This document shows positions 8,245-53,590 of a DNA stretch of 64,000 bases, piece by piece; positions within the stretch are counted from its first letter, which is position 1; every line of letters starts with the position of its first letter. The notes below the pieces were generated by a model, which did no database searches, was not told the origin of the DNA, and was given only the letters and a program-made list of their open reading frames with translations. The position numbers and the translations under genes were made by a program. Source of the DNA: Ignavibacteriales bacterium (lineage in GTDB: Bacteria > Bacteroidota > Ignavibacteria > UBA10030 > UBA6906); assembly GCA_037441705.1 (NCBI GenBank), contig JBBIRR010000002.1, positions 1 through 64,000 of the forward strand, in the 5' to 3' direction.

Positions 8245-8266
8245 GGTTGAGAAAGGAAAAAGATCG

Positions 8267-8353
8267 ATCCACGAAGAACACGAAGGTACACGAAAGTAGT
8301 TTATGCGTCGCCAAGGAAATTACTCTTCGTGTTCCTTAGTGACCTTCATGGAT
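8267..8353. repeat. Intergenic palindrome built from ~9-nt CACGAAG subrepeats
   Basis: ATCCACGAAGAACACGAAGGTACACGAA (8267-8294) matches the reverse complement of 8326-8353 at 23/28. Confidence 0.75.
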
Positions 8354-8381
8354 AGCTAAGAATGAGATAGAAGAGGAACGA

Positions 8382-9719
8382 ATGCACTACAGTTCAGTAT
8401 CACCCATTATCAAATCAAAGTACGAGAGAAAATTCGTCACGGCGGAGGAAGCGGTATCGGTTATCCGCTCCGGCGACCGTGTATACATTCACCCCGGCTG
8501 TGCCGTGCCGCAGGTGTTGGTGGACGCCATGGTGGCGCGCTATCAGGAACTGCACGACGTGGAGGTGTGCCACCTGCTTGGCGTCAGCGAGGCAGCGTAC
8601 GTGCGGCCCGAGATGGAAGGACACTTCCGGCACAACGCGTTCTTCATCGGCAAGAACGTACGCAGGGCGGTGTGTGAGGGACGGGCGGACTTCACGCCGA
8701 TTTTCCTGTCGGAGATTCCGGCCCTCATTCAGAGCAAGCACTTCCGGATTGATGTGGCGATGATTCAGGTGTCGCCGCCGGATGAGCACGGCTTCTGCAG
8801 CTTCGGCGTGGGCGTCGAGTGTACGCGCGCGGCAACGGACGTCGCGAAGATTGTCATCGCGCAAGTCAATCCCAACATGCCGCGCTCGCTCGGCGATTCG
8901 TTCATCCACATCAGCAGGATTGACTACTGCGTCGAAGCCGATGTGCCTCTGCGTGAGCTGCCGCAGTTGGAAGGAGATGAGACGCCCGAAGAGTTGGAAA
9001 ACTATCGCAGGATCGGCGAGCATGTCGCAAGCCTGATTGATGACGGCGCCACGCTCCAACTGGGCATCGGTCGCATCCCGGACGCTGTGGTGCGCTACCT
9101 CGGCGACCGGAAGCATCTCGGCATCCATTCCGAGATGGTCTCCGATGGAATTATCCCGCTGATCGAATCGGGAGTGATCACCAATCAAAAGAAAACACTC
9201 CTGCCGGGGAAGGTCGTCACCTCCTTCGTTCTCGGCTCGCATGAGTTGTTCGAGTACATCGACAACAATCCGTTCTTCGAATTCCGACCCACGCAGTTCA
9301 CGAACGATCCGTTTACGATTGCGCGCAACAGGAAGATGGTTGCCATCAACAGCGCCATCGAGATTGACCTGACGGGACAGGTGTGCGCCGATTCGATGGG
9401 CTACAAGTTCTACAGCGGGTTCGGCGGCCAGCTGGATTTCATTCGCGGCGCTGCGCGCAGCGAAGGAGGCAAGCCGGTCATTGCTCTCCCGTCAACAGCG
9501 AAGAACAACACGATCTCGCGCATCACGCCGCACCTGCGTGAAGGTGCGGGCGTTACCACCACGCGCGGCGATGTGCACTACGTGGCGACGGAGTACGGCG
9601 TGGTGAACCTGCACGGCAAAACTGTACGCGAACGAATCGAATTGCTCATCAGCATCGCGCATCCGAAGTTCCGGGCGGAGCTGGAGGCATTTGCAAAGGA
9701 GCGCTATTTCACCTGCTGA
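8382..9719 (+). CDS. Acetyl-CoA hydrolase/transferase family CoA-transferase (4-hydroxybutyrate CoA-transferase-like)
   Basis: TLQLGIGRIPDAV, LGIHSEM catalytic Glu, SGFGGQLDF, VTTTRGDVHYVATEYG. Confidence 0.92.
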   Translation: MHYSSVSPIIKSKYERKFVTAEEAVSVIRSGDRVYIHPGCAVPQVLVDAMVARYQELHDVEVCHLLGVSEAAYVRPEMEGHFRHNAFFIGKNVRRAVCEGRADFTPIFLSEIPALIQSKHFRIDVAMIQVSPPDEHGFCSFGVGVECTRAATDVAKIVIAQVNPNMPRSLGDSFIHISRIDYCVEADVPLRELPQLEGDETPEELENYRRIGEHVASLIDDGATLQLGIGRIPDAVVRYLGDRKHLGIHSEMVSDGIIPLIESGVITNQKKTLLPGKVVTSFVLGSHELFEYIDNNPFFEFRPTQFTNDPFTIARNRKMVAINSAIEIDLTGQVCADSMGYKFYSGFGGQLDFIRGAARSEGGKPVIALPSTAKNNTISRITPHLREGAGVTTTRGDVHYVATEYGVVNLHGKTVRERIELLISIAHPKFRAELEAFAKERYFTC

Positions 9720-9779: not shown

Positions 9780-10058
9780 ATGGCAAAAGGAACCGTCAAA
9801 TTCAACATCGAGATGTGCAAGGGCTGCGAGCTGTGCATCGAGGCTTGTCCGCAGGAAAGCCTTGCGCTATCACCCAAACTCAATAAACAAGGGTATCACT
9901 ACGCGGTGTTAGTGAAGGACAATTGCACGGGGTGCGTCAACTGCGCGCTCGTGTGTCCCGACGCGGTGATTACCGTGTATCGCGAAAAGAAGAAAGCGAA
10001 AGTCCCCGTCGCCACCATCACCAACGTGAAAGAAGACATCACGGTGACCGTGGCGTAG
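9780..10058 (+). CDS. 2x[4Fe-4S] delta subunit of 2-oxoacid:ferredoxin oxidoreductase
   Basis: CKGCELCIEACP and CTGCVNCALVCPD; upstream of the alpha/beta/gamma genes. Confidence 0.9.
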   Translation: MAKGTVKFNIEMCKGCELCIEACPQESLALSPKLNKQGYHYAVLVKDNCTGCVNCALVCPDAVITVYREKKKAKVPVATITNVKEDITVTVA

Positions 10059-10066
10059 GCGTTTCG

Positions 10067-10090
10067 GGCAGATGGAAGTGGAGTCCATCT
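10067..10090 (-). repeat. Internally deleted copy of the AGATGGACTCCAC palindromic element
   Basis: Minus strand reads AGATGGACTCCAC-TTCCATCTGCC, matching the arms at 13371 and 16103. Confidence 0.65.
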
Positions 10091-10112
10091 CCCCTTGAGA
10101 AAGGAGGCAACC

Positions 10113-10274
10113 ATGCAGCTCACGGACTTCATCAAGATCTTTACGCTGCTTCTCGGCTTCCTCGCGTTTGTGTACCTCCTTGCCTGGGTATTTCAAGGCG
10201 GTACGGAAGAAGACGAACGCAGGCGCAGAACGCTGTGGCCAAGGTTTGGCAGGCGGAGAGCGCGGAGGTCGTGA
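10113..10274 (+). CDS. 53-aa single-pass membrane peptide (not in the ORF track)
   Basis: AAAGGAGG RBS then MQLTDFIKIFTLLLGFLAFVYLLAWVFQGGTEEDERRRRTLWPRFGRRRARRS*. Confidence 0.6.
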   Translation: MQLTDFIKIFTLLLGFLAFVYLLAWVFQGGTEEDERRRRTLWPRFGRRRARRS

Positions 10275-10469
10275 TCTGAGGCGGCGCGATTGCGACGCCA
10301 TCGGACGTCTCGCGGGTGGAGAGTTGATTTTGCTATTTCTCATACAACGCTGAAGTGCGCGCACGAAGGTGAGCGCTGTTCAGCGTTTTGTGTCTCTGGC
10401 TTCCACCTCAAGAAGATGCTGGGATGAGAGAGAACTTGAGTAACTCGCATTAATCGAAAGGACCACGTT

Positions 10470-11558
10470 GTGTCAGAAATCCGACTCATGAAAGGGAACG
10501 AAGCGCTGGCGGAGGCGGCGATCCGCGCCGGCTGTCAGGCGTACTTCGGTTATCCCATTACGCCACAATCGGAAATTCTTGAATACCTTGCCGATCAGGG
10601 ACGCAAGCGCGGCATGATTGTGCTGCAGGCCGAAAGCGAAGTCGCGTCCATCAACATGATGTACGGCGCTGCGGGCGCAGGCGCAAGGGTGATGACCTCG
10701 TCATCAAGCCCCGGCATCAGTCTGATGCAGGAGGGGTTGTCCTATATCGCCTGCGCCGAGCTGCCGTGTTTGGTGGTGAACGTCAATCGCGGCGGGCCGG
10801 GACTCGGCACCATCCAGCCCTCGCAGGGCGATTACTTCCAGGCAACCAAAGGCGGCGGGCACGGCGACTATCGGCTGATTGTGCTGGCGCCGGCAAGCGT
10901 GCAGGAGATGGCGGACTTCGTGTTCGACGCGTTCGATCTTGCAGACAAGTATCGCAACCCGGTGATGATTCTTGCCGACGGTGCGCTGGGCCAGATGATG
11001 GAGAAGGTCGAGTTCCGCGACTACGATCCGAAGGAACACATTCCTCCAAAACCCTGGGCAACAACAGGCAAGACGAAAGATCGTGAACGGAACATCCTTA
11101 CCTCACTCCACATTCAACCGGAGAAGATGGAGCAGATCAACCTTCACCTGCAGGAGAAGTATCGGCGCATTACCGAGCAGGAGGTACGGTATGAAGTAGT
11201 GGAGACGGACGACGCGGAGTTTCTGATCGTTGCGTATGGGCTTGTCGCACGCATTGCGCATCGAGCAGTTGAAATCGCACGCGAGCAAGGAATCCGTGCG
11301 GGGTTGCTGCGACCACAGACGCTATATCCTTTCCCCTATCAGAAGGTGCGCGAGCTTGCCGAACGCGTCCACGGCATCCTGACGGTGGAAATGAACTCGG
11401 GGCAAATGGTCGAAGATGTTCGGCTTGGCGTTGAGGGACGCTGCCCCGTTGAGTTCTACGGACGGATGGGCGGCATCATTCCTTCGCCGGAAGAAATTGT
11501 GAAGGCATTGGAGAAGTTGGCCGGGAAAGATGTGCGACAGACGGTGGAGGCATATTGA
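10470..11558 (+). CDS. vorB: 2-oxoacid:ferredoxin oxidoreductase alpha-type subunit (VorB-like)
   Basis: LMKGNEA, YFGYPITPQSE, QAESE, TSSSSPGISL, RGGPGLGTIQPSQGDY, KGGGHGDY. Confidence 0.9.
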   Translation: MSEIRLMKGNEALAEAAIRAGCQAYFGYPITPQSEILEYLADQGRKRGMIVLQAESEVASINMMYGAAGAGARVMTSSSSPGISLMQEGLSYIACAELPCLVVNVNRGGPGLGTIQPSQGDYFQATKGGGHGDYRLIVLAPASVQEMADFVFDAFDLADKYRNPVMILADGALGQMMEKVEFRDYDPKEHIPPKPWATTGKTKDRERNILTSLHIQPEKMEQINLHLQEKYRRITEQEVRYEVVETDDAEFLIVAYGLVARIAHRAVEIAREQGIRAGLLRPQTLYPFPYQKVRELAERVHGILTVEMNSGQMVEDVRLGVEGRCPVEFYGRMGGIIPSPEEIVKALEKLAGKDVRQTVEAY

Positions 11559-11643
11559 AATGCGAGCAACCAGCCCGGAGCTTTAGCCCTTTCCATCAGG
11601 GCGGTCAACGAGCAAAATTCAGTCTGAACAATCGGTGAAACTC

Positions 11644-12438
<795 letters not shown>

Positions 12439-12465
12439 TTCAGCAACAGCAAGAGTGTCTCGACA

Positions 12466-13035
12466 ATGGAAGCGAAGGAATCAAACCTCATGACACATGA
12501 ACTGCTCATCGCTGGCTTCGGTGGCCAGGGCGTCCTTTCGATGGGGATGACGCTCGGCTACGCAGCCATGATCGAAAACAAAGAAATCAGCTGGATGCCG
12601 TCGTACGGACCGGAGATGCGGGGCGGCACGGCGAACTGCATCGTGATCGTTTCAAACAAGCGGATCAGCTCGCCGATCATCACCACGTTCGATACCGTCA
12701 TCGCGCTCAACCAGCCGTCGTTAGACAAGTTCGAATCTCGCGTGAAGCCGGGCGGCTTGCTGATGTACGACTCCACCAACATCATCAATCCGCCGACCCG
12801 AACGGACATCGAGATCGTCCCGATTCCCGCAAGCGAGGAAGCCTCGAACATGAAGAACATGAAGATCATGAACATGATCGTGCTCGGCGCGTTCCTTGAA
12901 CGACGGGAGATTGTGAAGATCGAATCCGTCATGGAGGCATTGAAGAAAGTTCTGCCCGAGCGCTATCATCATCTGCTGCCGCTGAACGAGCAGGCGTTGC
13001 GCCGCGGGCAAGAACTGGTCGCCATGCACATATAG
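12466..13035 (+). CDS. 2-oxoacid:ferredoxin oxidoreductase gamma subunit
   Basis: IAGFGGQGV, PSYGPEMRGGTANC. Confidence 0.92.
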   Translation: MEAKESNLMTHELLIAGFGGQGVLSMGMTLGYAAMIENKEISWMPSYGPEMRGGTANCIVIVSNKRISSPIITTFDTVIALNQPSLDKFESRVKPGGLLMYDSTNIINPPTRTDIEIVPIPASEEASNMKNMKIMNMIVLGAFLERREIVKIESVMEALKKVLPERYHHLLPLNEQALRRGQELVAMHI

Positions 13036-13113: not shown

Positions 13114-13362
13114 ATGCCCACACCCTGCGTTCACTCTTGCAAAGGTCTCTGCAACGCGCTGGAGGTAGCCGAGTTTCGCGAGACGGAAGCCATCAAGGAG
13201 TACAAACGTTTTGCCGAGAGCTGCACCTACCCGGATGTGCGTGTCCTGCTGGAAGATTTAATACGAGATCGGGAGCATTCGGTTCGGCTGCTGCGCGAAA
13301 AACGCGCAATGCTGCTGGCAAAGTTCGACACACTCGATCAGATTACGGACAGCTTCGTCTAA
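13114..13362 (+). CDS. Small half-ferritin-like protein with Cys-rich N-terminus
   Basis: CVHSCKGLC, then helix pair ALEVAEFRETEAIKEY ... PDVRVLLEDLIRDREH. Confidence 0.6.
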   Translation: MPTPCVHSCKGLCNALEVAEFRETEAIKEYKRFAESCTYPDVRVLLEDLIRDREHSVRLLREKRAMLLAKFDTLDQITDSFV

Positions 13363-13412: not shown

Positions 13413-13429
13413 CGGGCGGGAGAAAAACC

Positions 13430-13681
13430 ATGAGCCACCTTCGCACAGAACCAATTAACTGGAACGAGATTACGCTCGAAGAGGTGTTCGAGCTTGCCAT
13501 TGCCGATGAGGAATATGCGCGTGATTACTACAAGCACGCTGCAGAGCTTGCCGGCAACCCGCATACGCGTGAGTTGTTACTCAAGCTCTCCGCCATGGAA
13601 CAGGGACACGCCGACTCGCTGCGGCAGGAGCTTGAGGAACTGCGCATCGAGCGACAGGAGGAAGCGGGGATGGCGGATTAG
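13430..13681 (+). CDS. Ferritin-like/rubrerythrin half-domain protein
   Basis: FELAIADEEYARDYY ... LLLKLSAMEQGH (E...ExxH di-iron half-site); GGGAG RBS. Confidence 0.75.
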   Translation: MSHLRTEPINWNEITLEEVFELAIADEEYARDYYKHAAELAGNPHTRELLLKLSAMEQGHADSLRQELEELRIERQEEAGMAD

Positions 13682-13893: not shown

Positions 13894-13950
13894 CGTGGCA
13901 GCGTGCGGGACATCGTCCTGATTTTTCTACTATCGAAGATAGGAGGTCCT

Positions 13951-14532
13951 ATGAAACTTGATATGGTACAGGTCTTCAAGCTCGCTCTTATCACTGTCGT
14001 GGGTTGGGCGGCAACGGTTGCCGTCGGACTGATCGTCTACGGCGGTAACGTCTTTCGCCCGTCGTCTGTTGCGTTCGCGTTTCTGTCGTACGGGTTGAGC
14101 GGAGCGTTCATCTTTGCCTTTTACCACGTTCGGAACGTTTCCGAAACGATCGTCGCCGCAGTGCTCGTCAGCGCGGCACAATTTATCGTGGGGATGCTGT
14201 GGTTTCCGTGGCTGAATGCGCTGGTCTGGTCGTACGGAGTGAACATGCCCGTCGTTGCTCTCGCGTTCATGTTCGAGCGGAAACTCGCGCATTTCAAGCA
14301 GGCGAAATTCACCGTCGTGGCGTTGGTGTACAGCGTCATGTTCGTTCTGCTGACGCTGTTGGTGACGGTGTTGAGCGGTGTCGAAATGATGCCGGCCTCG
14401 CTCTTTCGCGACAACTGGTTAGATGGTTTACTCATTGGATTGGGCTTAGGGCTGGGCGTTGAAGGCGCTGAGACGTTCATCCATTCGTGGGAGGAACATC
14501 GCAGCACTGCCCCTGCAGAAAAGACATCCTGA
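13951..14532 (+). CDS. Hypothetical polytopic membrane protein
   Basis: About 6 hydrophobic segments; AGGAGG RBS before ATG 13951. Confidence 0.75.
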   Translation: MKLDMVQVFKLALITVVGWAATVAVGLIVYGGNVFRPSSVAFAFLSYGLSGAFIFAFYHVRNVSETIVAAVLVSAAQFIVGMLWFPWLNALVWSYGVNMPVVALAFMFERKLAHFKQAKFTVVALVYSVMFVLLTLLVTVLSGVEMMPASLFRDNWLDGLLIGLGLGLGVEGAETFIHSWEEHRSTAPAEKTS

Positions 14533-14640: not shown

Positions 14641-15762
14641 ATGAGTACCTACAAAATAGCATGGCTCCCGGGCGACGGCATCGGGAACGATGTGATGGAG
14701 GCCGCGAAGATTGTGTTAGACGCGGCGGAGTTTGATGCGACCTACATGGTCGGCGACATCGGCTGGGAGTTTTGGCGGAAAGAAGGGGATGCTTTTCCGC
14801 AGCGTACGATCGAGCTTCTGAAAAATGTTGATGCTGCGCTGTTCGGCGCGATCACCTCCAAGCCGGTGAAGGCGGCAGAAGCGGAACTGGTACCGGAACT
14901 GCGAGGCAAAGGCCTTGTGTATCGTTCGCCGATTGTCCGCATGCGGCAGCTGTTCGATCTGTACACGTGCTTGCGTCCCTGCAAGGCCTTCGCAGGAAAT
15001 CCCCTCAACTACAAAGAAGGGATTGATCTCGTGGTTTTCCGCGAGAACACGGAGGATCTGTACGCGGGCGTCGAGTTCCACCCTGTGCCGCGGGAGCTGA
15101 GCGAGACGCTGTCGTACATCTCTCAAGCGTTTACGCCGTTCGCCAATCTTGCCCCGGACCACTATGCAATCTCCTGCAAGGTGAACACAACAAGAGGCTC
15201 GGAGCGGATCGTGCGAGCGGCGTTTGAGTTTGCCCGCAAGAACAAACGGAAGAAGGTCACGATCGTGCACAAAGCAAACGTCGTGCGCGCTACGGACGGG
15301 CTGTTCCTTGAAGAGGCGAAGAAAGTGGCGGCACAGTATCCGGACATCGCCATGGACGATGCGAACGTGGATGCCATCTGCATGTGGCTGCTGAAGAATC
15401 CGTTCAACTACGACGTGCTGGTTGCGCCGAATCTGTACGGCGACATCATTTCCGATCTCTGTGCGCAGATGGTCGGCGGATTGGGATTCGGATGCTCGGG
15501 CAACATCGGCGAAACACTCGCGGTGTTCGAGCCGACACACGGCTCGGCGCCGAAGTATGCAGGACAGTATAAAGTGAACCCGATTGCCACGATCCTTGCC
15601 GCGAAGATGATGTTAGAGTGGCTGGGTGAGAAGGAGAAGGCGCACCGCATCGAACTGGCAGTGGCTTCCGTCATCAAGGAAGGCAAGGTTCGCACGTACG
15701 ACATGGGCGGCACCAGCTCGACGATTGACATGGCGAAGGCGATAGCCCAGCAATTGAATTGA
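14641..15762 (+). CDS. Isocitrate/isopropylmalate dehydrogenase family (beta-decarboxylating dehydrogenase)
   Basis: LPGDGIG, FRENTEDLY, VHKANV, NLYGDIISD, FEPTHGSAPKYAG, NPIA. Confidence 0.92.
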   Translation: MSTYKIAWLPGDGIGNDVMEAAKIVLDAAEFDATYMVGDIGWEFWRKEGDAFPQRTIELLKNVDAALFGAITSKPVKAAEAELVPELRGKGLVYRSPIVRMRQLFDLYTCLRPCKAFAGNPLNYKEGIDLVVFRENTEDLYAGVEFHPVPRELSETLSYISQAFTPFANLAPDHYAISCKVNTTRGSERIVRAAFEFARKNKRKKVTIVHKANVVRATDGLFLEEAKKVAAQYPDIAMDDANVDAICMWLLKNPFNYDVLVAPNLYGDIISDLCAQMVGGLGFGCSGNIGETLAVFEPTHGSAPKYAGQYKVNPIATILAAKMMLEWLGEKEKAHRIELAVASVIKEGKVRTYDMGGTSSTIDMAKAIAQQLN

Positions 15763-15826
15763 CCACGGATGACACGAGGGAATAAGCCGCGGATGAAACG
15801 GAAACGACACGAATCGGTCACGGATC
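15762..15826 (+). repeat. Degenerate CACGGAT/CACGAA subrepeat cluster
   Basis: ccacggatgacacgagg..ccgcggatgaaacggaaacgacacgaatcggtcacggat; similar in style to the 8267 element. Confidence 0.45.
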
Positions 15827-15902
15827 GTTTCTTGATTGTTCATTCCAATCCAACCGAAGTATCTCTTCGGTGTAGTCGGTGGTGAACTTCAGGAATCAGG
15901 AA

Positions 15903-16847
15903 ATGAACGACATCATCATTCACGAAGTCGGCATGCGGGATGGTCTGCAGATGGAGAAGCAAATCGTCCCGCTCGAAAAGAAGATCGAGTGGATCACCCG
16001 CCTGATCGCATCGGGTGTGGACGTTGTTCAGGTCGGCTCGTTCGTCCGCGCGGACAAAGTGCCGCAGATGGCGGATACGGATCAGTTGTTCACGCGCCTC
16101 CGAGATGGACTCCACCTACCAGAGGAGCCCTCGAGAGGTGGAGTCCATCTGCCGCGGCTGAGCGCACTCGTGCTGAACGAGAAAGGCCTGGAGCGCGCAC
16201 TTGCATGCGGCGTCAAGATGATCTGCATGGGAGTCTCCGCAAGCGAAACCCACAGCAGGAAGAACGCCGGCATGTCCGTGGCCGAGGCAACCGACCGCAT
16301 TCTTGCCATGGCAAAGACTGCGCACGAAGCAGGAAGCACAGTACAAGTCTCCGTTCAATCCGCCTTCGGTTGCGGCTACGAGGGACACGTGCCGCAGGAG
16401 AACGTGATGCGCATTGTGGAGCGCTACCTCGACGCGGGCCTTCGCAACATCAGTCTCGCGGATACCGCAGGGCATGCCACACCGGATCAGGTTGAGAAGA
16501 TGTTCGGCGCCATTCTGGAGTTCGACGAAGGCGTTGAATGCGCGTGTCACTTTCACAACACGTACGGACTGGCACTCGCCAACTGCTACGCGGCGATGAA
16601 GATCGGCGTGAAGTCGTTCGAGTCATCGGTAGCAGGACTCGGCGGCTGTCCGTTTACCAAGATCGCCGGGGGCAACACGTGCACGGAGGATTTCGTCCAC
16701 ATGCTGCACCGGATGGGGTTGCGGCAGGACATCAAACTCGATATTCTCATCGCTATTGCGCAAGATGCGGCGCAGTATTTCGGACGTGAGATGGAAGGGA
16801 GGGTGTATAGGGTGGGAGAGATTGCTAAGGGATTGCAGGCTGCATAG
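15903..16847 (+). CDS. HMG-CoA lyase family (DRE-TIM) acyl-CoA lyase
   Basis: HEVGMRDGLQ, SFVRADKVPQMAD, SETHSRKN, AFGCGYEG, LADTAG, HFHNTYG, GLGGCPF, GNTCTED. Confidence 0.9.
   Translation: MNDIIIHEVGMRDGLQMEKQIVPLEKKIEWITRLIASGVDVVQVGSFVRADKVPQMADTDQLFTRLRDGLHLPEEPSRGGVHLPRLSALVLNEKGLERALACGVKMICMGVSASETHSRKNAGMSVAEATDRILAMAKTAHEAGSTVQVSVQSAFGCGYEGHVPQENVMRIVERYLDAGLRNISLADTAGHATPDQVEKMFGAILEFDEGVECACHFHNTYGLALANCYAAMKIGVKSFESSVAGLGGCPFTKIAGGNTCTEDFVHMLHRMGLRQDIKLDILIAIAQDAAQYFGREMEGRVYRVGEIAKGLQAA
16101..16155. repeat. REP-like palindromic element inserted in frame within the lyase CDS
   Basis: 15-bp perfect arms AGATGGACTCCACCT (16103-16117) / AGGTGGAGTCCATCT (16136-16150); flanks identical to the 13369 copy. 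Confidence 0.85.
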
Positions 16848-16964
16848 AGCTTCACCGACGCCGTGGGGGGTTTGCTCCAATAGAACGTTGTACGAAGGGG
16901 CGGCCCGGGAACGTATCGTTCGGGCTTGTTCAGAAGAAGGTTGGTGAACTAATGTGGAGGTGCC

Positions 16965-17909
16965 ATGAAGCGAACAGCGATGCTTCTTGCGATGGGCCTC
17001 TTGCTGGTCCTTGGGCTGCTGTCATGCGACAAGAACGAAACGATCATTGATGGCGGCGACACGAACACGAACGTCCCGAGTTACGTCAGCGCGTTGAATG
17101 CATTCAGCTACACCATCAGTGCGCGGCGGTTGACGACAAGTCATCGTATTCCGCTGAACTTCACGTTCAACCGGCTGCAGATTGCTGCCACGGTTTCCAG
17201 CGGAGCCGCAGGAAGCGCGGCGTTTACGCTGCTCGGTCCGTCACAGCAGATCATTCACGCCGATACGTTCAGATTTCCAGGTGTGCATCAGGTGGTTTCG
17301 GTTGCAGGCGTGCCTGAGTCGGTAGTGGTATCGTATGCAAACTTCACGGGGATTCTGAGCTACACGCTCCTCGGGGTTGGCAACTTTGATTCGATGACGG
17401 TGAGCGAATTCCCGACGTCCACTGGCTCGCAGTGGACCTATGCCGTGTTCGACAGTCTCGCACAGCAGCGCGACACGCTCGTCGTTACGGTGTTTGGTCA
17501 GACGATTCTTCCTGGCGGCATCCCGGCTTCGATCTGGCAGCTTGCCTATCGCTCGCGGACAGACACACAGTACGTGAACGTCTCCGGAGATACCGTGCGA
17601 TTCTACATTTATCCGAACAGTCAATGGGCCCAGCCGAACTACCTATTTCCTCTCTGGCTGAACAAGAGTTGGAGATTAGCGCCAATGGAATCAACCGCCG
17701 TTGCGCAAATCGGTTGGGTGGAAACTCCTGTCGGCAGTTTTCCTTATGCATACCTCGTCGAAAAGCTGTGGGGAGGGTTTAACGACTACGGTACATTGCG
17801 CACGTGGCTTGTTCCCAACCTCGGCATCGTGAAGCTCCACCGGCGAGGGGTGAGCTTTGGGCAGGCCAATGTCGTGTGGGAGTTGATGGGCTACAGAATC
17901 GTGCGCTGA
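16965..17909 (+). CDS. Hypothetical lipoprotein
   Basis: Signal peptide ending LLSC; beta-rich; C-terminal ETPVGSF / WLVPNLGIVK. Confidence 0.75.
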   Translation: MKRTAMLLAMGLLLVLGLLSCDKNETIIDGGDTNTNVPSYVSALNAFSYTISARRLTTSHRIPLNFTFNRLQIAATVSSGAAGSAAFTLLGPSQQIIHADTFRFPGVHQVVSVAGVPESVVVSYANFTGILSYTLLGVGNFDSMTVSEFPTSTGSQWTYAVFDSLAQQRDTLVVTVFGQTILPGGIPASIWQLAYRSRTDTQYVNVSGDTVRFYIYPNSQWAQPNYLFPLWLNKSWRLAPMESTAVAQIGWVETPVGSFPYAYLVEKLWGGFNDYGTLRTWLVPNLGIVKLHRRGVSFGQANVVWELMGYRIVR

Positions 17910-18010
17910 ACGGCGAAGAGATTTCTGTTCATTCACACAACGTGGTATCGTGAGCCTTGGGCAGTCGTCCGGGCAAAGTGCCACGTTTTCTTTTTTGATA
18001 GGAAAGAGTA

Positions 18011-19207
18011 ATGAGTCGACTTCTTGAAGGCATACGCGTTCTCGATCTTACCAACGTCCTTTCCGGACCGTTTGCAACGCTGCATCTTGCGCTGCTCGGT
18101 GCGGAGGTGATCAAGATTGAGAATCCGGTGGATGGCGATCTTGCTCGCAAGCTCGGCTGCCTGCCCGAACTGAATGACAGGCTGATGGGCACGAGTTTCC
18201 TCGCGCAGAATGCCAACAAAAAATCCCTCACACTCAATCTTAAAGAGAAAGAGGGAAAGGAGATATTTCTCAAGCTCACGGAAACGGCCGATGTGGTGGT
18301 AGAGAATTTTCGACCCGATGTGATGGATCGGCTCGGCGTCGGCTACGATGTGCTGAAGCAGGTCAATCCGCGCATCATCTACTGCGGCATCTCGGGCTTC
18401 GGCAAGACCGGACCGGATGCGATGAAGCCCGCGTACGATCAGATCATTCAGGGCTTGAGCGGCGAGATGGCCATCAACGGCGATGAGCGGCTGAATCCGC
18501 TGCGGGCAGGGTTTCCGGTCTGTGATACCGTCGGTGGATTGAACGCCGCGTTTGCCATCATGGCCGCACTGTATTACCGCGAGCGTACCGGCGAGGGCCA
18601 GTTCATTGACGTTGCCCTGCTCGATTCCATCATGCCGCTGATGGGCTGGGTGGCGGCAAACTGGCTCATCGGCAAACAGCCGCCCGTGTTGATGGGGAAC
18701 GACAACTTTACCGCTGCGCCCTCCGGCGTGTTCGTTACACAGGATGGCTACATCAACATTGCGGCAAACAAACAGGAGCAGTGGGAAGCCGTTGCCGAAG
18801 AACTCGGCGTGCCGGAACTGAAAACCGATCCCCGATTTCAGCAGCGGGATGTTCGGAAGAAGAACCGGAAAGAGCTGACGGTTCTGCTCGAGGCAAAATT
18901 GAAGGAGCGTCCGACGAGGTATTGGGTCGAGGTGCTGAACAAACGCGGCGTCCCATCGGGCGAGATTCTGAGCTTACAGGATGCGCTGGAGCAGGAACAG
19001 ATCAAGCATCGCGAAACGATTGCCTCGATCTACGCAGAAGGCATCGGCGAGCTGAAACTGTTCAATCTCACGGCGAAGTTCGAGAAGACGCCGGGTAAAG
19101 TGGAATGCCCGCCGCCGAAGCTCGGAGAACACACCGTGGAAATTCTTCGCGCCGTCGGCTATACGGACGAGAAGATTCAGGACCTGAAGCGCCGGGGGGT
19201 TGTGTGA
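18011..19207 (+). CDS. Class III (CaiB/BaiF) CoA-transferase
   Basis: GIRVLDLT, LGAEVIKIE, NKKSLTLNLK, ENFRP, ISGFG, catalytic Asp in PVCD, PPKLGEHT. Confidence 0.93.
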   Translation: MSRLLEGIRVLDLTNVLSGPFATLHLALLGAEVIKIENPVDGDLARKLGCLPELNDRLMGTSFLAQNANKKSLTLNLKEKEGKEIFLKLTETADVVVENFRPDVMDRLGVGYDVLKQVNPRIIYCGISGFGKTGPDAMKPAYDQIIQGLSGEMAINGDERLNPLRAGFPVCDTVGGLNAAFAIMAALYYRERTGEGQFIDVALLDSIMPLMGWVAANWLIGKQPPVLMGNDNFTAAPSGVFVTQDGYINIAANKQEQWEAVAEELGVPELKTDPRFQQRDVRKKNRKELTVLLEAKLKERPTRYWVEVLNKRGVPSGEILSLQDALEQEQIKHRETIASIYAEGIGELKLFNLTAKFEKTPGKVECPPPKLGEHTVEILRAVGYTDEKIQDLKRRGVV

Positions 19208-19242
19208 CCCGGGAATGATTCATTGATACGAACGAGGACTCT

Positions 19243-20535
19243 ATGGGAATGACGGTTGTAGAAAAAATTCTGGCGAAGGCGACCGGCCGATCGTCGGTGA
19301 CGGTGGGAGAGGTCGTTGAGCCGAAAGTTGATCTGGCGATGTCGCACGAGAACGCAGCGCTTGTCATCAACCAATTTCTCGAAATCTATAAGGACACAAA
19401 CCTCCAGCCGAGGCTCTGGGATCACGACCGGGTGGCCATCATCTTCGACCATCGCGTGCCTGCCGAATCACCCAAGACGGCGACGAACCAGAAGAAGATT
19501 CGCGAGTTCGTTGCCGCGTACGCCATCCGCAAGTTCCACGACATCCGCGGCGATGTCGGCGGCATCTGTCATCAAGTTCTGCCCGAGAACGGCTACGTCC
19601 GACCGGGCTACGTCGTCGTCGGGACCGACTCGCACACCACAAGCCATGGCGCGCTCGGAGCGTTTGCCTTCGGTATCGGGGCGACGGAGATGGCAAGCGT
19701 GTGGGCGCTCGGCACCGTGCTGAACGTCGAAGTGCCGGCCACGCTTCGCGTGAACGTGAGCGGACACTTTCCCGAGTTTGTTGGAGCAAAGGATTTGATT
19801 CTCTTCTTGATCGGCAAGCTCGGAGCAGAAGGAGCCAATTTCAAAGTGATCGAGTTTGGTGGGGAGACGATTACGAACATGCCGACATCAGGCAGGCTCG
19901 TTCTGTGTAACATGTCGGTGGAAGCGGGCGCGACCTCGGGCATTGTTCCTGCCGATGACGAGACGCTCCGCTACCTGCGCCACGAAGCGGGCGTTACGAA
20001 CGACATTCAGCTTGTGCAGCCCGATGCCGATGCACGCTATGAACGCATCATCACGGTTGACGTCTCGAACCTCGAGCCGCACATCGCCTGTCCTCACACG
20101 GTTGATAATGTGAAGCCCATTGATAAGATCAATCATGTGAAGGTAAACCAGATTGTCATCGGTTCGTGCACGAACGGCCGGCTGGATGACCTTGAAGTGG
20201 CGGCCCGGATTGTGCGGGGAAAGAAGATTGCGCGCACCGTCCGCATGCTTGTGTTTCCTGCTTCGGCAAAGATTTACCGACAGGCGTTGGCGAAGGGCTA
20301 CCTTGCCGATCTGGTGAACGCGGGCGCCGTGGTGATGAACCCGGGTTGTGGGCCGTGCCTCGGCGTGCACGAAGGCGCGCTCGGCGACGGCGAAGTGGCG
20401 CTTTCGACCACCAACAGAAATTTCAAAGGACGGATGGGGAATCCCAATTCGGAGGTGTATCTCTGTTCGCCCGCGGTTGCAGCCGCGTCGGCACTCGTCG
20501 GCGCGATTACAGACCCCAGAGAGTCTTCACGCTAA
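19243..20535 (+). CDS. Isopropylmalate/homoaconitate-type dehydratase large subunit (LeuC/HacA-like)
   Basis: IFDH, GICHQ, GTDSHT, LCNMSVEAGA, IGSCTNGR, PGCGPCLG, STTNRNFKGRMG. Confidence 0.93.
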   Translation: MGMTVVEKILAKATGRSSVTVGEVVEPKVDLAMSHENAALVINQFLEIYKDTNLQPRLWDHDRVAIIFDHRVPAESPKTATNQKKIREFVAAYAIRKFHDIRGDVGGICHQVLPENGYVRPGYVVVGTDSHTTSHGALGAFAFGIGATEMASVWALGTVLNVEVPATLRVNVSGHFPEFVGAKDLILFLIGKLGAEGANFKVIEFGGETITNMPTSGRLVLCNMSVEAGATSGIVPADDETLRYLRHEAGVTNDIQLVQPDADARYERIITVDVSNLEPHIACPHTVDNVKPIDKINHVKVNQIVIGSCTNGRLDDLEVAARIVRGKKIARTVRMLVFPASAKIYRQALAKGYLADLVNAGAVVMNPGCGPCLGVHEGALGDGEVALSTTNRNFKGRMGNPNSEVYLCSPAVAAASALVGAITDPRESSR

Positions 20536-20546
20536 GGAGATGCAAC

Positions 20547-21182
20547 ATGAATCTATCTTCATTGCACACATGGTCAATACGATCTGTCACCATCATTTTG
20601 TTGGTGGGACTTGTTCCGGCAATTGTCCGCTCGCACTGCGACACGATGAACGGTCCGGTTGTGCTGGCAGCCAAGAAGGCATTGGAAACAGGCGATGTCA
20701 ATCTCGTCCTGATTTGGGTGCAGAAGAAAGATGAAGCCGAAGTCAGAGACGCGTTTCAAAAAACCCTCGCGGTGCGCAAGCTCAATGCCGATGCTCGCAC
20801 GCTTGCGGACATGTATTTCTTTGAGACGCTTGTTCGCATCCACCGGGCCGGAGAGGGGGTGGCGTATACCGGACTGAAGCCGGCAGACACGGAGGTGGAT
20901 CCGGGGATCGCCGCTGCAGATAAAGCATTAGAGTCAGGGTCGGTTCGAGAGCTTCTTCATCATCTCGAGGAATCCCTGCTTCACAATCTGGATGCGAGAT
21001 TCAAGGGGGTGACAGAGAAGAAGAACTTCAAGCCAGGAGATGTGAATGCAGGCCGTGAGTACGTCAAGGCGTACGTGGAATTCATTCACTTTGTGGAGCG
21101 ACTGCACCAGGCGATAACTCAACCCGTCGAGGGTCATTCGCACGAGGCTGGAGCTGTCGGTACACACCACGGGGACCATTGA
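20547..21182 (+). CDS. Exported protein with mature N-terminal HCD motif (DUF6448-like) and His-rich tail
   Basis: Signal peptide then HCDTMNGPVV; YFFETLVRIHRAGEG; AGREYVKAYVEFIH; EGHSHEAGAVGTHHGDH. Confidence 0.75.
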   Translation: MNLSSLHTWSIRSVTIILLVGLVPAIVRSHCDTMNGPVVLAAKKALETGDVNLVLIWVQKKDEAEVRDAFQKTLAVRKLNADARTLADMYFFETLVRIHRAGEGVAYTGLKPADTEVDPGIAAADKALESGSVRELLHHLEESLLHNLDARFKGVTEKKNFKPGDVNAGREYVKAYVEFIHFVERLHQAITQPVEGHSHEAGAVGTHHGDH

Positions 21183-21223
21183 CTAGAAGAAAACATCATG
21201 CACCAATAAACAAGGAGTTTGTT

Positions 21224-21736
21224 ATGGCACGAGTCGTCCTGACGCTCGGCAACGATGTCTCCACGGATGTCATTTATCCGGGCCGCTACATGGCCACGGT
21301 GCTGCCGACGGAGACGCCGCAGTTTGCCTTTGCCGATCACACCGAGTTCAACGCGAAGCTGAAGGCGAAGCAGATTCCGCCGGGCAGCGTGATTGTCGCA
21401 GGCAAGAATTTCGGCTGCGGTTCATCACGCGAGCAGGCCGTTTCGACGCTGAAGGGACACGAGCTGGTGATTGTGGCAAAGAGCTTTGCACGCATCTTCC
21501 TGCAGAATGCCGTCAACCTTGGCCTGCGACTGGTCGAGGTGCCGGATATTGAAGCGAGCGAAGGAGACGAGCTGGAAATCGGCAGCGATACCGTTGTCAA
21601 CAAAACGACAGGCAGGATGTTCCAAGCTGTGCCGATGCCCAAGTCCCGTCAGGCCATCATTGACGCAGGCGGCTTGATTGCCTACACGAGAAAGAGACTG
21701 CTGGAGAGGGCTGCATCGGGAAGCAGTACAGATTGA
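21224..21736 (+). CDS. Isopropylmalate dehydratase small subunit (LeuD/HacB-like)
   Basis: DVSTDVIYPGRY, AGKNFGCGSSREQA, AKSFARIF..N..N.G. Confidence 0.92.
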   Translation: MARVVLTLGNDVSTDVIYPGRYMATVLPTETPQFAFADHTEFNAKLKAKQIPPGSVIVAGKNFGCGSSREQAVSTLKGHELVIVAKSFARIFLQNAVNLGLRLVEVPDIEASEGDELEIGSDTVVNKTTGRMFQAVPMPKSRQAIIDAGGLIAYTRKRLLERAASGSSTD

Positions 21737-27461: not shown

Positions 27462-30400
27462 ATGGCCGAGTACGACGACGCGCAGGAGCGACGAAGGAAG
27501 AGTGGCGAGTTTTTGAGACAGGCGGACAAGCTCTACAAGCTTGCCGACTATGAAGGGGCGCGTGAACTCGTCTCCAAAGCCATGGCCGCCGATCCTCAGA
27601 ATCCGTACGCGCTGGCATACCGCGAGCGCGTTGAGTATGCCCTGCAACAACGGAAGGCGTCGCCTTCAGCACCGAGCACCCAGCCGCAAGATGTGCCATC
27701 CAAACCCACCCTGACATTCCAGCAACCGCTCCGCCCCGGTAGTGCTGAAAGTGATCTGCTGCCTTCGGAGAGTGGCCGGCGGGAGGCAGCATCTCGATCC
27801 TTCGACGTTGACGTGCTTTCCCCGGAAGTGCGCTTTGAACGAGAAGCGATACGAAAGGCGGAAGAAGAGCAACGCCGTCTTGCCGATGAATCCCGACAGA
27901 AAATCGAAGCCGAGTTGACGCGTCAGCGGGCATTAGTGGAAGCGGCGCTGAAGGTGGAAGAGGCGCGCAAGAAGTCCGATGCCGAAAGTGCCCGTCAGCG
28001 TGCGGAGCTGGAAGCCAAACTCCGGCGGATTGAAGCGGAGAGCGCACGTCTGGCCGCCGAGGCAGAACGAAAGGCCGCCGAGATCGAGATGCGACGGCGC
28101 GCCGAAGAAGAGCGGCGGAGGGTTGAGGAACAGCAGCGACGTCGTGCCGAAGAGGCACGCCGGAAGGCCGAAGAGGAATTGGAACGCCAGCGTCTGGAGC
28201 TGGAAGCGATTATCAAGGCGGGAGAGGAAGAGAAGCGCAAGATCGCCGAGGAAGCACTGCGGAAAGCCGAAGAAGCGCAACGACGTGCAGAAGAGGAGAT
28301 TGCGCGCCAGCGCATGGAGATGGAACGCAGGCTGCGGGAAGAGGAAGAGGAACGCAAGCGTGTTGCTGCCGAAGCGCAACGGAAGGCGGAAGAAGAAATC
28401 CGACGCGTGACCGAAGAAACCCGCCGCATGGCCGAAGCAGAGCTTGCGCGTCAACGGGCGGAACTCGAGGCGATCATCAAGGCAGGAGAGCTGGAGCGCA
28501 GAAAAATTGCGGAGGAAGCCATCCGCCAGGCCGAGGAGGTGAAACGACGCGCAGAGGAAGAAGCGCGGCGCATTGCGGACGAAGCGCGACGCAGGGCAGA
28601 AGAAGAAGAACTGCTGCGCATTGCCGAGGAGACGCGGCGCAAGGAAGAAGAGGAGCAGCGCCGGTTGGCCGAAGAAGCCCGGCGGCGCGCCGAAGAGGAG
28701 TGGAAGAAGGCAGAAGCAGAGCTGGCGCGTCAACGCGAGATCATCGAAGCAGCCCTGAGAGCCGAAGAGCTACGGCGGCAACGCGAGGAAGAGGAGGCGC
28801 GAAGACGAGCGGAAGAGGAAGCGCGTCGGCGCGCAGAAGAAGAGGCACGCCAGCGTGAGATCGAAGAGGCGCATCGCCGGGCGGAAGAGGAAATCCGCCG
28901 CAAGTTGGAGGAGGCGACGCTCAAGCTGGAAGAGGAGCGTCGGCGTTACGAGGAGGAGAAGCAGGCGCGCATTCGAGCCGAACAGTTGATGAAACGCGAA
29001 GAAGAGGAACGGCGTCTGCAGGCCGAGCGTCAGCTCCGTCAGGAAGAGGAAGCGGCGCGCAAACGCATTGCCGAAGAGGCGCGCCGCAAGCTGGAGGAAG
29101 AACGCAAACGGATTGAAGCGGAGGCGCAGGCCCAACTCGAAGCGGAGCGCAAACGCCTGGAGGATGAGCTGCGGGCGCGCCTTGAAGAACAACATCGCAA
29201 GCTGGAAGAAGAACGGCGGCGGATTCAGCAGGAACTTGAGGCGAAACGACGAGCGGAGGAGGCCGAGCGGAAACGTTTGGAGGAGGAACTCCGTCGCCTC
29301 ATGCAACAGGTCCCTCGCACGCCCGAAGCGGCCGACGGCACGGGGCAAGCCGGTGAAGAACAGCGCAAAACCATTCCGGTGCAACAGAAGCCGTCGGCAG
29401 GTATTGATTTGCAGGCCGAACACACGCGGATGGCGGAGGAACTGCAGGCAAAGCTGGAAGAGGAGCGTCGCCGACGGGAACAGGAGGAAGAGGAACAGCG
29501 GCAGGCGCTCGAGGAGAAGCGGCGCGCTGAGGAAGAAGAACAGCGCCGCATCGAGCTTGACTATCAGCGTCAGATCGAGGAAGAGCGTCGTCGCCTCGAG
29601 GAAGAACAACGCAAGCGTTTGGCTGCCGAACAGCTCCGCATAGAACTTGAAGCAAAACGCAAGGCGGAAGAAGAAGTCCGACGCCGTGAGGAGGAGGCAC
29701 AGCGTCTCCTGCAGGAAAAGAAGCGGAAGGAAGAGGAAGCGGAGCGACTGCGCCAGGCAGAGTTGGAGCGGCTCAAGCGCGAGGAGGAAGAACACACGCG
29801 CAACCACCAGGAAGCGGTGCGCGCAGCGATCGCCGAAGGCAGGCGCCTTGCCCAGCAGAAGAAAATGCGGATGTACTTCGAAGCGGCGCGCAGATTTCTC
29901 GCCGAGCAGCGCTTCGAAGAAGCGGTAAAAGAAGTGACGAAGGTGTATCTCATCTCGCCCGACAACGAGGAGGCGAAACGGCTTGAAACGGAAATTTACA
30001 ATGCCCGTCAGGCCCAGGCCAAACGGAGAGAGGGGGCGCGGCGCTGGCGCGAGGAGCATCTCCGCAAAGTTGAATCGCTTCAGAAAGAGCTTGCAGAGTT
30101 CGCCGTGAAGGAACGCGAGGAACAGGAGAAGCGCGCGATCCGCAAAGCAAAAATCGACGCATGCCTCAAACGCGTGGAGGAGTTCTACCGTCACCGCCAG
30201 TACGACAAAGCCCGAGCGGAAATCGAGACGGTGTATGCTATCGATCCGGCCAATACGCGGGCGCAAGACCTTGAGATGGATATCCTGAACGAGACGCACC
30301 GGAAAGAGGAGGCGCGTCGCGTGTTCGAGCAGCGCTCGCAGCGCGGTCTGCTCTGGAAACGCGAGGAAGAAGCGCGTGAGCGCACCATGAACGAACGCCG

Positions 30401-45114: not shown

Positions 45115-45119
45115 GGATC

Positions 45120-47021: not shown

Positions 47022-47058
47022 TGGTATCTCATGGAAACAGAACACACGGAGTCTGTTT

Positions 47059-47607: not shown

Positions 47608-47637
47608 TGTGCAGTTACTTAAACGAAGGAACACACA

Positions 47638-48963: not shown

Positions 48964-48983
48964 GAGGAGGAATGATGGAAGCG

Positions 48984-49546: not shown

Positions 49547-49610
49547 TGGTTCCTCGTCCTGTCCGCTTGAGAAAAACTATGTAATCTGAATCCAACTTGC
49601 AAGGATAGCC

Positions 49611-50840: not shown

Positions 50841-50928
50841 CATTCATAGATCACTATAACACCTACAATAAACCCCGGAGACACACAGACCGGGATCAAC
50901 CAACATAACACAGAAGGAGTCAACAACA

Positions 50929-52827: not shown

Positions 52828-52869
52828 CGTCGTGCGTGTTACCCTGTGTTTGTTGAATCATACCCTCAC

Positions 52870-52899: not shown

Positions 52900-52926
52900 T
52901 GCGGGCGGTGAAAGGAAGGAAGCGTA

Positions 52927-53565: not shown

Positions 53566-53590
53566 ACAAGTCCTGCGTAATGTGGTGGTG

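Follow-up and report, generated by a model that had tools for sequence, protein, structure and literature searches.

The closest described counterpart of the locus treated here is a pair of enzymes from Chloroflexus aurantiacus, a class III CoA-transferase (EC 2.8.3.20) and a lyase (EC 4.1.3.46), which by their description join (R)-citramalate, its CoA ester, and pyruvate plus acetyl-CoA, and which an excerpt of PMC8307300 names as a possible indirect route from pyruvate and acetyl-CoA to (R)-citramalate. Our locus occupies positions 14641-21736 on the forward strand of the first 64 kb (the window) of contig C2 in the genome of an Ignavibacteriales bacterium (3.83 Mb in 92 contigs, rated 100% complete), and it differs from the Chloroflexus pair in that the same operon also holds a LeuCD-like isomerase and a LeuB-like dehydrogenase. 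The Chloroflexus lyase is reportedly a member of the hydroxymethylglutaryl-CoA (HMG-CoA) lyase family and its gene a neighbor of the transferase gene, as Friedmann et al. are said to have described in J Bacteriol in 2006/2007, and we know of no report of that pair joined with LeuCD/LeuB-like genes. We propose that the five genes very probably form one functional module for a synthase-free alkylmalate/alkylmalyl-CoA pathway.

The citramalate (CimA) and isopropylmalate (LeuA) pathways share with the module the isomerase and oxidative-decarboxylation chemistry and the protein families, but the module has a CoA-transferase and a lyase instead of a synthase, its proteins miss the LeuB, LEU2 and leuD equivalog cut-offs, and its dehydrogenase appears to carry an NADP-type signature. 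The condensing synthase beside isomerase and dehydrogenase that defines a 2-oxoacid elongation pathway is lacking from the module, and the genome's other PF00682 gene adjoins the canonical leuD on contig C9. The reductive tricarboxylic acid (TCA) cycle needs citrate cleavage in place of citrate synthase, and its citryl-CoA synthetase/citryl-CoA lyase or ATP-citrate lyase resembles the module in that a synthase is bypassed by activation of the acid to a CoA ester and cleavage; the cycle then reverses an aconitase-type isomerase and an isocitrate-dehydrogenase-type reductive carboxylation. The module would differ in using a class III transferase and a DRE-TIM lyase, no ATP, and an alkyl- rather than carboxymethyl-substituted substrate. 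Human SUGCT and HMGCL are, respectively, the nearest solved relative of the transferase (9br6) and a close relative of the lyase (2cw6), but they are not linked to LeuCD/LeuB types and hydroxymethylglutarate (HMG) is no aconitase-family substrate. Finally, a designed synthetic cycle, as an excerpt of 10.1101/2025.11.21.689712 presents it, carboxylates 2-oxobutyrate and ends by converting citramalate to citramalyl-CoA and cleaving it to pyruvate and acetyl-CoA, as proposed here; that cycle is a paper design with an engineered biotin carboxylase, methylaspartate, mesaconate, and a citramalyl-CoA lyase, whereas the module would use reductive carboxylation and a LeuCD-type isomerase. Full-text literature searches, with supplementary files outside their scope, found no paper describing the five-gene set, and the excerpts of PMC13491972 and PMC12290011 hold nothing relevant to it. 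Each enzyme family, each reaction type, and the transferase/lyase pair are known; what is new is their combination in a conserved, widespread operon that replaces the synthase.

Synteny and co-occurrence of the five genes

The region comprises seven co-oriented open reading frames (ORFs), five of which encode the module enzymes:

14641-15762, + strand: Iso_dh-family dehydrogenase (PF00180, 310 bits), proposed 3-alkylmalate dehydrogenase/reductive carboxylase
15903-16847, + strand: HMG-CoA-lyase-family (DRE-TIM) lyase (PF00682, 149 bits), proposed 2-alkylmalyl-CoA lyase, most likely for (R)-citramalyl-CoA
16965-17909, + strand: protein of 314 amino acids with a lipoprotein-like signal and no Pfam or NCBIfam match, a lineage-specific insertion between lyase and transferase
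18011-19207, + strand: class III (CaiB/BaiF) CoA-transferase (PF02515, 399 bits), proposed succinyl-CoA:2-alkylmalate CoA-transferase
19243-20535, + strand: LeuC-like large subunit of an Fe-S (de)hydratase (PF00330, 340 bits), proposed 2-alkylmalate/3-alkylmalate isomerase
about 20547-21182, + strand: secreted DUF6448 protein (PF20046, 200 bits), an insertion between LeuC and LeuD
21179/21224-21736, + strand: LeuD-like small subunit (TIGR02087, 121.5 bits)

An earlier reading of this DNA (the original prediction) had named the same five enzyme families, which the Pfam and NCBIfam matches bear out, and had left the two interspersed secreted-protein genes off its gene list. It had also claimed that the window holds no LeuA or CimA, and indeed PF00682 matches only the module lyase and one gene on contig C9 in the whole genome. 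Among the 59 window ORFs put to Pfam (the remaining short ORFs lay outside the scan), no further leu or ilv family appears. Co-orientation itself carries little weight, as almost all long ORFs over 1601-30728 lie on the + strand, and a promoter and terminator scan of the window performed no better than on shuffled sequence.

The case for a functional unit comes from other genomes. For a locus sample, one genome per species was searched with an alignment of the lyase and the best 80 loci were taken; a class sample of 121 genomes from the window's class (120 drawn, plus the genome itself) was chosen independently of the lyase. Taxon labels are those of the submitters, and related genomes are non-independent samples. 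By tblastn, the order dehydrogenase-lyase-transferase-LeuC-LeuD, with all five genes within 9 kb, recurs in 56 of the 80 loci, whose labels span at least five phyla. A contig end accounts for the missing genes in a further 14, four (L003, L010, L028, and L047) have insertions or short flanks, and six have the lyase and transferase alone. The module includes no synthase, and this holds for the window and for all 56 complete loci alike. The 80 loci are labeled Ignavibacteriota/Bacteroidota/Chlorobi (54) or Gemmatimonadota, Acidobacteriota, Verrucomicrobiota, Myxococcales, and others (26), and their module proteins are 57-91% identical to those of the window, a single LeuC standing at 57% and all others at 61% or more.

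Where lyase and transferase stand alone, a dehydrogenase ortholog (64-77% identity) is found on another contig in four of five genomes, and in three of these it adjoins a LeuC ortholog; the module can split into two halves that still co-occur. The class sample gives the same picture at the level of whole genomes. Lyase orthologs (at least 56% identity, the next matches reaching at most 31%) are present in 12 of 121 genomes, and these 12 and no others carry transferase orthologs. The dehydrogenase likewise has orthologs in 12 genomes, 11 of them lyase carriers, and the nine genomes with LeuC-type orthologs all fall inside the lyase's 12. A chance neighborhood is ruled out by the synteny in 56 loci together with this genome-wide co-occurrence. 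The synthase-free five-enzyme unit of the original prediction is thereby upheld, as is the five-gene co-occurrence on which it was to be judged.

The module is an accessory unit with a patchy distribution, because only those 12 class genomes carry the lyase and because G001, the only other genome of the same genus, is without it. In G001 the module, the oxidoreductase and the acetyl-CoA-family transferase encoded upstream of it in the window (see below), and any PF00682 gene are all unmatched, and only the first 204 residues of the upstream methionine-gamma-lyase-like gene find a match. The lyase ortholog in one class genome, G118, carries an in-frame TAA. In a quickly built tree with the window's lyase and 58 of those from the 80 loci, the Gemmatimonadota (four rows) and the Verrucomicrobiota (two rows) each form a single group nested among Ignavibacteriota/Bacteroidota; this tree left out the 22 loci without a clean lyase ORF, a careful tree search was incomplete, and we draw no claim of transfer from it.

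The module is also a second set, distinct from the leucine genes of the genome. On contig C9 lie a LeuC above the cut-off of the LEU2 equivalog TIGR02083 (649 bits vs 611), a LeuB above that of NF002898 (423 vs 393), and a LeuD, beside which lies a LeuA-family gene of 417 amino acids (208 bits vs a cut-off of 517). Module proteins are 36-45% identical to these canonical LeuB, LeuC, and LeuD proteins (45% for LeuC). The check for a separate leuABCD that the original prediction had called for shows that the module is not the sole leuBCD copy. On C9 (36192-46021, locus L081) genes for a thiolase and a MarR-type regulator and an ORF of 779 amino acids separate leuB and leuC from leuD and the LeuA-family gene, and the LeuA-like gene adjoins a 6-oxocyclohex-1-ene-1-carbonyl-CoA hydratase equivalog (574 bits vs 464).

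Enzyme relatives and substrate class

The dehydrogenase matches PF00180 over the full profile (positions 1-348 of 348) and, in a MAFFT alignment with E. coli Icd (residue numbering verified on the E. coli sequence), has residues identical to Icd R119, R129, R153, Y160, K230, D283, D307, and D311. It falls below every NCBIfam equivalog cut-off. The best match is AksF2, the methanogen homoisocitrate dehydrogenase (348 bits vs 540), and the LeuB equivalogs TIGR00169 (210.7 bits vs 353.2) and NF002898 (278.8 vs 393) are missed as well. Among solved structures, isocitrate and homoisocitrate dehydrogenases (254 and 240 bits) are nearer to it than isopropylmalate dehydrogenases (at most 175 bits), and it retains the Arg-Ser pair of Icd R112-S113. 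These relationships favor substrates with a distal carboxylate, either citrate/isocitrate or homocitrate/homoisocitrate, so that the module would serve an ATP-independent cleavage of citrate or homocitrate, with chain shortening of 2-oxoglutarate or 2-oxoadipate as the outcome. The pocket residues argue otherwise. Dehydrogenase S96/I98/V99 align with Icd S113/N115/V116, with Ile replacing N115, and Val stands at the position of R85 in the homoisocitrate dehydrogenase (HICDH) of T. thermophilus. Icd S113 and N115 and HICDH R85 are, we assume, the residues that bind the distal carboxylate, and of this set the Ser is kept while Ile and Val occupy the other two positions; R85V reportedly makes the Thermus enzyme active on isopropylmalate. 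The Ile and Val, like the whole motif YRSPIVRMRQ, stay unchanged in 52 of 52 orthologs. On the cofactor side, K305/Y306/V312/Y353 correspond to Icd K344/Y345/V351/Y391, which we take to be NADP determinants, and are retained in 51-52 of the 52 orthologs, the residues of E. coli LeuB there being D, I, A, and G; the dehydrogenase thus seems to bear a cofactor signature of NADP type.

The LeuC-like subunit is of archaeal type; it exceeds the subfamily cut-offs NF001614 (553 bits vs 385), TIGR01343 (518 vs 386), and TIGR02086 (515 vs 410) but stays below the equivalogs LEU2 (457 vs 611) and HacA_Meth (486 vs 550). Its translation shows the motifs GSCTNG and GCGPC, whose cysteines are presumably Fe-S cluster ligands. 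Similarly, the LeuD-like subunit lies above the TIGR02087 subfamily cut-off (121.5 bits vs 108.95) and below the equivalogs leuD (119 vs 246) and HacB (117 vs 230). Its best match among solved structures is the isopropylmalate/citramalate isomerase subunit 3vba of M. jannaschii (120 bits), with the homoaconitase 2pkp at 97 bits. In the loop whose residues we take to set substrate specificity, the module has Y-M-A-T, the isopropylmalate/citramalate isomerase Y-L-V-Y, and homoaconitase Y-L-R-T; the module loop is of neither known type, but it is without the Arg of homoaconitase. All 29 orthologs compared share M-A-T, preceded in 28 of them by Y or F. Together, the LeuD loop and the dehydrogenase residues speak for a side chain that is uncharged and alkyl rather than a carboxylate, and the alkylmalate-type substrate class of the original prediction gains from both proteins, as their pocket residues fit an alkylmalate better than isocitrate or homoisocitrate.

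The lyase exceeds the cut-off of the NCBIfam subfamily NF004283, "HMG-CoA lyase" (280.9 bits vs 246), and its R-D-G, H-x-H (HFH), G-G-C-P, and G-N motifs align with those of human HMGCL (2cw6), the catalytic residues of which we take to be R41, D42, H233, H235, C266, and N275. Its close solved relatives include B. subtilis 1ydo (194 bits) and human 2cw6 (175 bits). The ORF opens at GTG 15879 and the orthologs begin at ATG 15903. The NCBIfam scan brought up no curated model for EC 4.1.3.46. The genome yielded no second gene of the HMG-CoA-lyase type; its one further PF00682 match is the LeuA-like synthase on C9. The transferase matches PF02515 over positions 1-366 of 366 and is below the NCBIfam equivalog cut-offs, its best match being succinate-glutarate CoA-transferase (290 bits vs 750); its best solved relative is human succinate-hydroxymethylglutarate CoA-transferase (9br6, 269 bits), which works on C5/C6 dicarboxylates with succinyl-CoA, and tblastn finds no other homolog of it in the genome. 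According to an excerpt of 10.1101/322404, TIM-barrel HMGL enzymes use (S)-HMG-CoA, and the substrates of CitE-type lyases are (R)-HMG-CoA and (S)-citramalyl-CoA. On the same geometrical reasoning, a lyase of HMGL type would be expected to act on (R)-citramalyl-CoA, which is the enantiomer handled by LeuCD-type enzymes.

We favor methyl as the alkyl group on three grounds. The only 2-alkylmalate transferase/lyase pair known to us as described acts on (R)-citramalate (EC 2.8.3.20 and EC 4.1.3.46; PMC8307300), short dicarboxylates (C2-C6, methyl-branched or unbranched) are the substrates of the nearest relatives of both enzymes, and the HMGL/CitE stereochemistry predicts (R)-citramalyl-CoA for an HMGL-type lyase. 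We would give an even chance to the citramalate/2-oxobutyrate series.

Proposed route, its direction and the alternatives

In the mechanism that we put forward, the five enzymes would link a 2-oxoacid with the next shorter 2-oxoacid and acetyl-CoA by way of free alkylmalates and alkylmalyl-CoA. The chemistry would be that of LeuA/CimA-LeuCD-LeuB elongation, in which the irreversible synthase is swapped for a reversible class III CoA-transferase and an HMG-CoA-lyase-family lyase. Specifically, the dehydrogenase would interconvert 2-oxobutyrate, CO2, and NAD(P)H with (2R,3S)-3-methylmalate, and the LeuCD-like enzyme would interconvert 3-methylmalate, citraconate, and (R)-citramalate. The transferase would then exchange (R)-citramalate and succinyl-CoA (the presumed CoA donor) for (R)-citramalyl-CoA and succinate, and the lyase would cleave (R)-citramalyl-CoA reversibly to pyruvate and acetyl-CoA. 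A linear path from a 2-oxoacid through a 2-alkylmalate to a shorter 2-oxoacid and acetyl-CoA is proposed because it is the only path that uses all five enzymes. Amino-acid-fermenting or -respiring bacteria could use it to convert 2-oxobutyrate derived from threonine or methionine to pyruvate and acetyl-CoA, consuming reducing equivalents, and by arithmetic the conversion of 2-oxobutyrate to two acetates would be redox-neutral overall.

We consider it somewhat more probable than the reverse that the module runs mainly degradatively, since carriers can also hold synthases, since most carriers lack IlvD and cannot turn 2-oxobutyrate into isoleucine, and since the four Icd NADP-determinant positions are occupied by K, Y, V, and Y in the dehydrogenase. 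A reverse pathway would need a separate synthase-free set, so a module that stands beside a biosynthetic set, or without one, fits. The full statement, a citramalate-series, synthase-free, and mainly degradative module, is held tentatively, at a little short of even chances. The reverse citramalate-type route that had been predicted originally thus stands as regards the conserved synthase-free unit, the second leu set, and the alkyl-type pocket, while the methyl group and the direction are what we infer.

An alternative isoleucine-precursor route, which had also been suggested, finds no support in the gene content. In this genome PF00585 is unmatched and TIGR01127 reaches at best 86 bits (cut-off 379), so that no IlvA was found; tblastn with the E. 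coli proteins at 1e-6 finds no IlvC or IlvD; and PF00920 (IlvD) has no match here vs three of three other family members and 14 of 14 controls. As neither IlvC nor IlvD is present, 2-oxobutyrate cannot become isoleucine in this organism. PF00920 is found in 29 of 121 class genomes, four of the 12 lyase carriers, and two of the nine genomes with the full module, so the role is ruled out for this genome and for most carriers (seven of the nine full-module genomes are without IlvD). A role as a replacement for CimA is ruled out by the relatives G054 and G063, which carry the module plus two and four LeuA-family genes, respectively. The canonical leu genes are retained here despite the absence of IlvA, IlvC, and IlvD, and, judged by PF00920, de novo synthesis of branched-chain amino acids seems to be lacking as a rule in the class sample.

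The alternatives to the citramalate series have to be weighed together with the genes upstream of the module, which are as follows:

6928-9719, + strand: Cys/Met-metabolism pyridoxal-phosphate enzyme and an acetyl-CoA hydrolase/transferase-family CoA-transferase (Pfam, NCBIfam)
9780-13035, + strand: ferredoxin and three Vor-type subunits of a 2-oxoacid:ferredoxin oxidoreductase (POR_N/PFOR_II, TPP_enzyme_C, POR, Fer4)
13114-13362, about 13415-13681, and 13903/13951-14532, + strand: two small helical proteins and a membrane protein of 193-209 amino acids, between Vor and the module

The pyridoxal-phosphate enzyme is closest to methionine gamma-lyase (326 bits, below the cut-off of 550), the CoA-transferase is nearest to butyryl-CoA:acetate transferases, and the oxidoreductase belongs to the VorB-type (3-methyl-2-oxobutanoate) subfamily (563 bits vs 399). 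Of the 80 loci, 31 have Vor next to the module (25 with Vor upstream and on the same strand, six with it downstream and on the opposite strand), and because it is found there in two arrangements, some functional tie between Vor and the module is suggested. It is also present in 70 of 121 class genomes (11 of 12 lyase carriers vs 59 of 109 non-carriers), and in carriers of other phyla its best match has 44-57% identity in four genomes and is marginal in a fifth. The methionine-gamma-lyase-like gene occurs in 61 of 121 class genomes, seven of the 12 carriers among them, and adjoins the module in 18 of 80 loci; the corresponding figures for the acetyl-CoA-family transferase are 95 of 121, 12 of 12, and 10 of 80. 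Both genes are common irrespective of the module and are its neighbors in one lineage only, so a tight coupling to either is unsupported. The block is common equipment of the class that lies outside the conserved module, and while the nearby block named in the original prediction is real, the link drawn there between block and module is weaker than this window alone suggests.

Several observations weigh against the proposal as a whole or in part. One carrier, G073, has the lyase and transferase without the dehydrogenase or the LeuC type, which indicates that the pair can work alone. The lyase passes an HMG-CoA-lyase cut-off and is the sole gene of its type in the genome, with which a true HMG-CoA-lyase role remains compatible. 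The NADP argument is weakened by the genome's own canonical LeuB, which has K, Y, and A at the cofactor positions. As to the methyl group, no residue that we examined separates methyl from isopropyl or another alkyl, the VorB annotation implies branched-chain 2-oxoacids and is equally compatible with isopropylmalate, and the methionine-gamma-lyase-like gene, a hint of 2-oxobutyrate, has the wide distribution just described. Two genes of the methylmalonyl-CoA-mutase family show that a B12 route for propionyl-CoA exists in this genome, and the PrpD family is found neither here nor in five family members (four of them less than 90% complete); these mutase and PrpD results leave the substrate undecided.

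The best-surviving alternative, although unlikely, is an isopropyl series in which 2-oxoisocaproate, CO2, and NAD(P)H would give 3-isopropylmalate, then 2-isopropylmalate and 2-isopropylmalyl-CoA, and finally 2-oxoisovalerate and acetyl-CoA. Leucine would thus be broken down, or converted to valine, by reversed leucine biosynthesis, with Vor oxidizing the 2-oxoisovalerate. An alkyl-type pocket suits isopropyl and methyl equally, the solved protein nearest to LeuD acts on isopropylmalate and citramalate alike, and both the VorB match with its recurrent adjacency to the module and the butyryl-CoA:acetate-like transferase agree with such substrates, as does the absence of IlvD from most carriers, which must import branched-chain amino acids. 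Against it, the closest solved relatives of lyase and transferase act on methyl-branched or unbranched C2-C6 dicarboxylyl-CoA esters, the conserved neighbors of the module include neither a branched-chain aminotransferase nor a leucine dehydrogenase, and Vor is common in non-carriers as well. The terms isopropylmalyl-CoA, alkylmalyl-CoA, and ethylmalyl-CoA are absent from the literature searched, from 2015 onward, and to our knowledge no 2-isopropylmalyl-CoA lyase or transferase has been described.

A further variant keeps the citramalate series and adds the adjacent Vor. Propionyl-CoA, CO2, and reduced ferredoxin would give 2-oxobutyrate (Vor), which with CO2 and NADPH would pass through 3-methylmalate, (R)-citramalate, and (R)-citramalyl-CoA to pyruvate and acetyl-CoA. 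We regard it as rather improbable that module and Vor make up such a natural CO2-incorporating assimilation route, a "reverse citramalate pathway" that would need neither B12 nor biotin and would occur widely among uncultured Ignavibacteriota, Gemmatimonadota, Acidobacteriota, and Verrucomicrobiota.

Forward operation is less probable still. Here the module would stand in for citramalate or isopropylmalate synthase and conserve the thioester, CoA being handed on to succinate or acetate and not released by hydrolysis. The product would be either 2-oxoisocaproate or 2-oxobutyrate, the latter as a source of isoleucine or propionyl-CoA. In principle every step can be reversed, with the decarboxylating dehydrogenase drawing the sequence forward, and the genome has no IlvA and, in the C9 gene, a single LeuA-family synthase that misses its cut-off by far. 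The possible indirect citramalate route named in the review PMC8307300, in the excerpt cited above, also runs in this direction. The gene content that speaks against an isoleucine role (no IlvC or IlvD here, IlvD in two of nine full-module genomes) counts against forward operation too, as do the several LeuA-family genes of G054 and G063 and the lack of the module in G001 of the same genus. Lyases of the HMGL family and acid-activating CoA-transferases, moreover, usually operate in the cleavage direction.

It is very unlikely that the lyase and transferase are an ordinary HMG-CoA lyase and a succinyl-CoA:hydroxymethylglutarate transferase of leucine/HMG breakdown, with the LeuCD-like and dehydrogenase genes as unrelated operon partners. 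The subfamily score and the full set of catalytic residues of the lyase agree with that assignment, as do the best solved relative of the transferase and the genomes in which the two genes occur without the rest of the module. The five-gene order across phyla and a co-occurrence that persists when the module is split into two operons speak against it. Aconitase-family chemistry requires a carboxylate on the hydroxyl-bearing carbon and HMG has none; it cannot be a LeuCD-type substrate, so that the conserved link would stay unexplained. Least probable are the distal-carboxylate substrates, for which the dehydrogenase relatives speak and against which stand the Ile and Val of its pocket, the LeuD loop without the homoaconitase Arg, and the genome's separate aconitase and NADP-type isocitrate dehydrogenase of 417 amino acids outside the module.

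Insertions, flanking genes and meaning of the module

The two proteins inserted into the module here are not part of it elsewhere. The protein of 314 amino acids has a Cys after a hydrophobic N-terminal stretch and homologs (37-48% identity) in three of 80 loci, and a DUF6448 protein lies inside the module in none of them. The DUF6448 protein has His-Cys-Asp just past its predicted signal peptide and a His-rich C-terminus, and it may be a metal-binding protein; in locus L044 (~5230) a homolog with 55% identity lies between ferredoxin and VorA. The two small helical proteins and the membrane protein between Vor and the module are conserved, by ORF clustering, in 17, nine, and 13 loci, respectively. 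Neither the first small protein (by way of its L009 homolog) nor the membrane protein has a Pfam match, and an atlas search with the latter (13903-14532) returned hypothetical proteins only. The first small protein stays beside VorG in the inverted arrangement too, the second resembles ferritin/rubrerythrin-like helices by eye, and the membrane protein has a 63% identical paralog at positions 110771-111322 of C2. No other neighbor is consistently conserved around the loci, radical SAM, OsmC, Usp, TetR, efflux, and acyl-CoA dehydrogenase genes each occurring in a few of them.

On the 3' side, the module is followed by a gene for a TonB-dependent receptor and by another whose product carries a type IX secretion sorting domain. 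Elsewhere in the window, positions 45111-57843 hold a respiratory cluster with an Fe-S flavoprotein, a Rieske protein, cytochrome b, a multihaem cytochrome c, and then a nitrous-oxide reductase (50929-52827, nos_propeller plus cupredoxin) followed by NosD, an ABC ATPase, and an ABC-2 permease. An ORF of 1088 amino acids at 27462-30728 is of unusual composition with only a weak TPR (tetratricopeptide repeat) match, and the interval 28001-30000 has a GC content of 0.62, a GC skew of 0.215, and an AT skew of 0.52. An Rfam scan of the window found a single tRNA and nothing else.

The genes of the module are at present annotated as "HMG-CoA lyase", "CoA transferase", and "isopropylmalate dehydratase". 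If our proposal is correct, they would supply ready enzymes for engineered reverse citramalate or carbon-fixation designs, and the assimilation variant, were it to hold, would come close to reaction sequences that are being designed for synthetic carbon fixation. For the biology of these organisms, it would mean that textbook 2-oxoacid elongation, of which only versions with an irreversible synthase are known so far, also occurs in a reversible version dependent on CoA esters, and that this version travels as a mobile five-gene unit in many uncultured bacteria of soil, sediment, and the subsurface. These bacteria would have an added route between C4 and C3 plus C2 central metabolites, one that draws on CO2 and NAD(P)H and not on B12 or biotin enzymes, and metagenome models of the turnover of threonine, methionine, leucine, and propionate would change.

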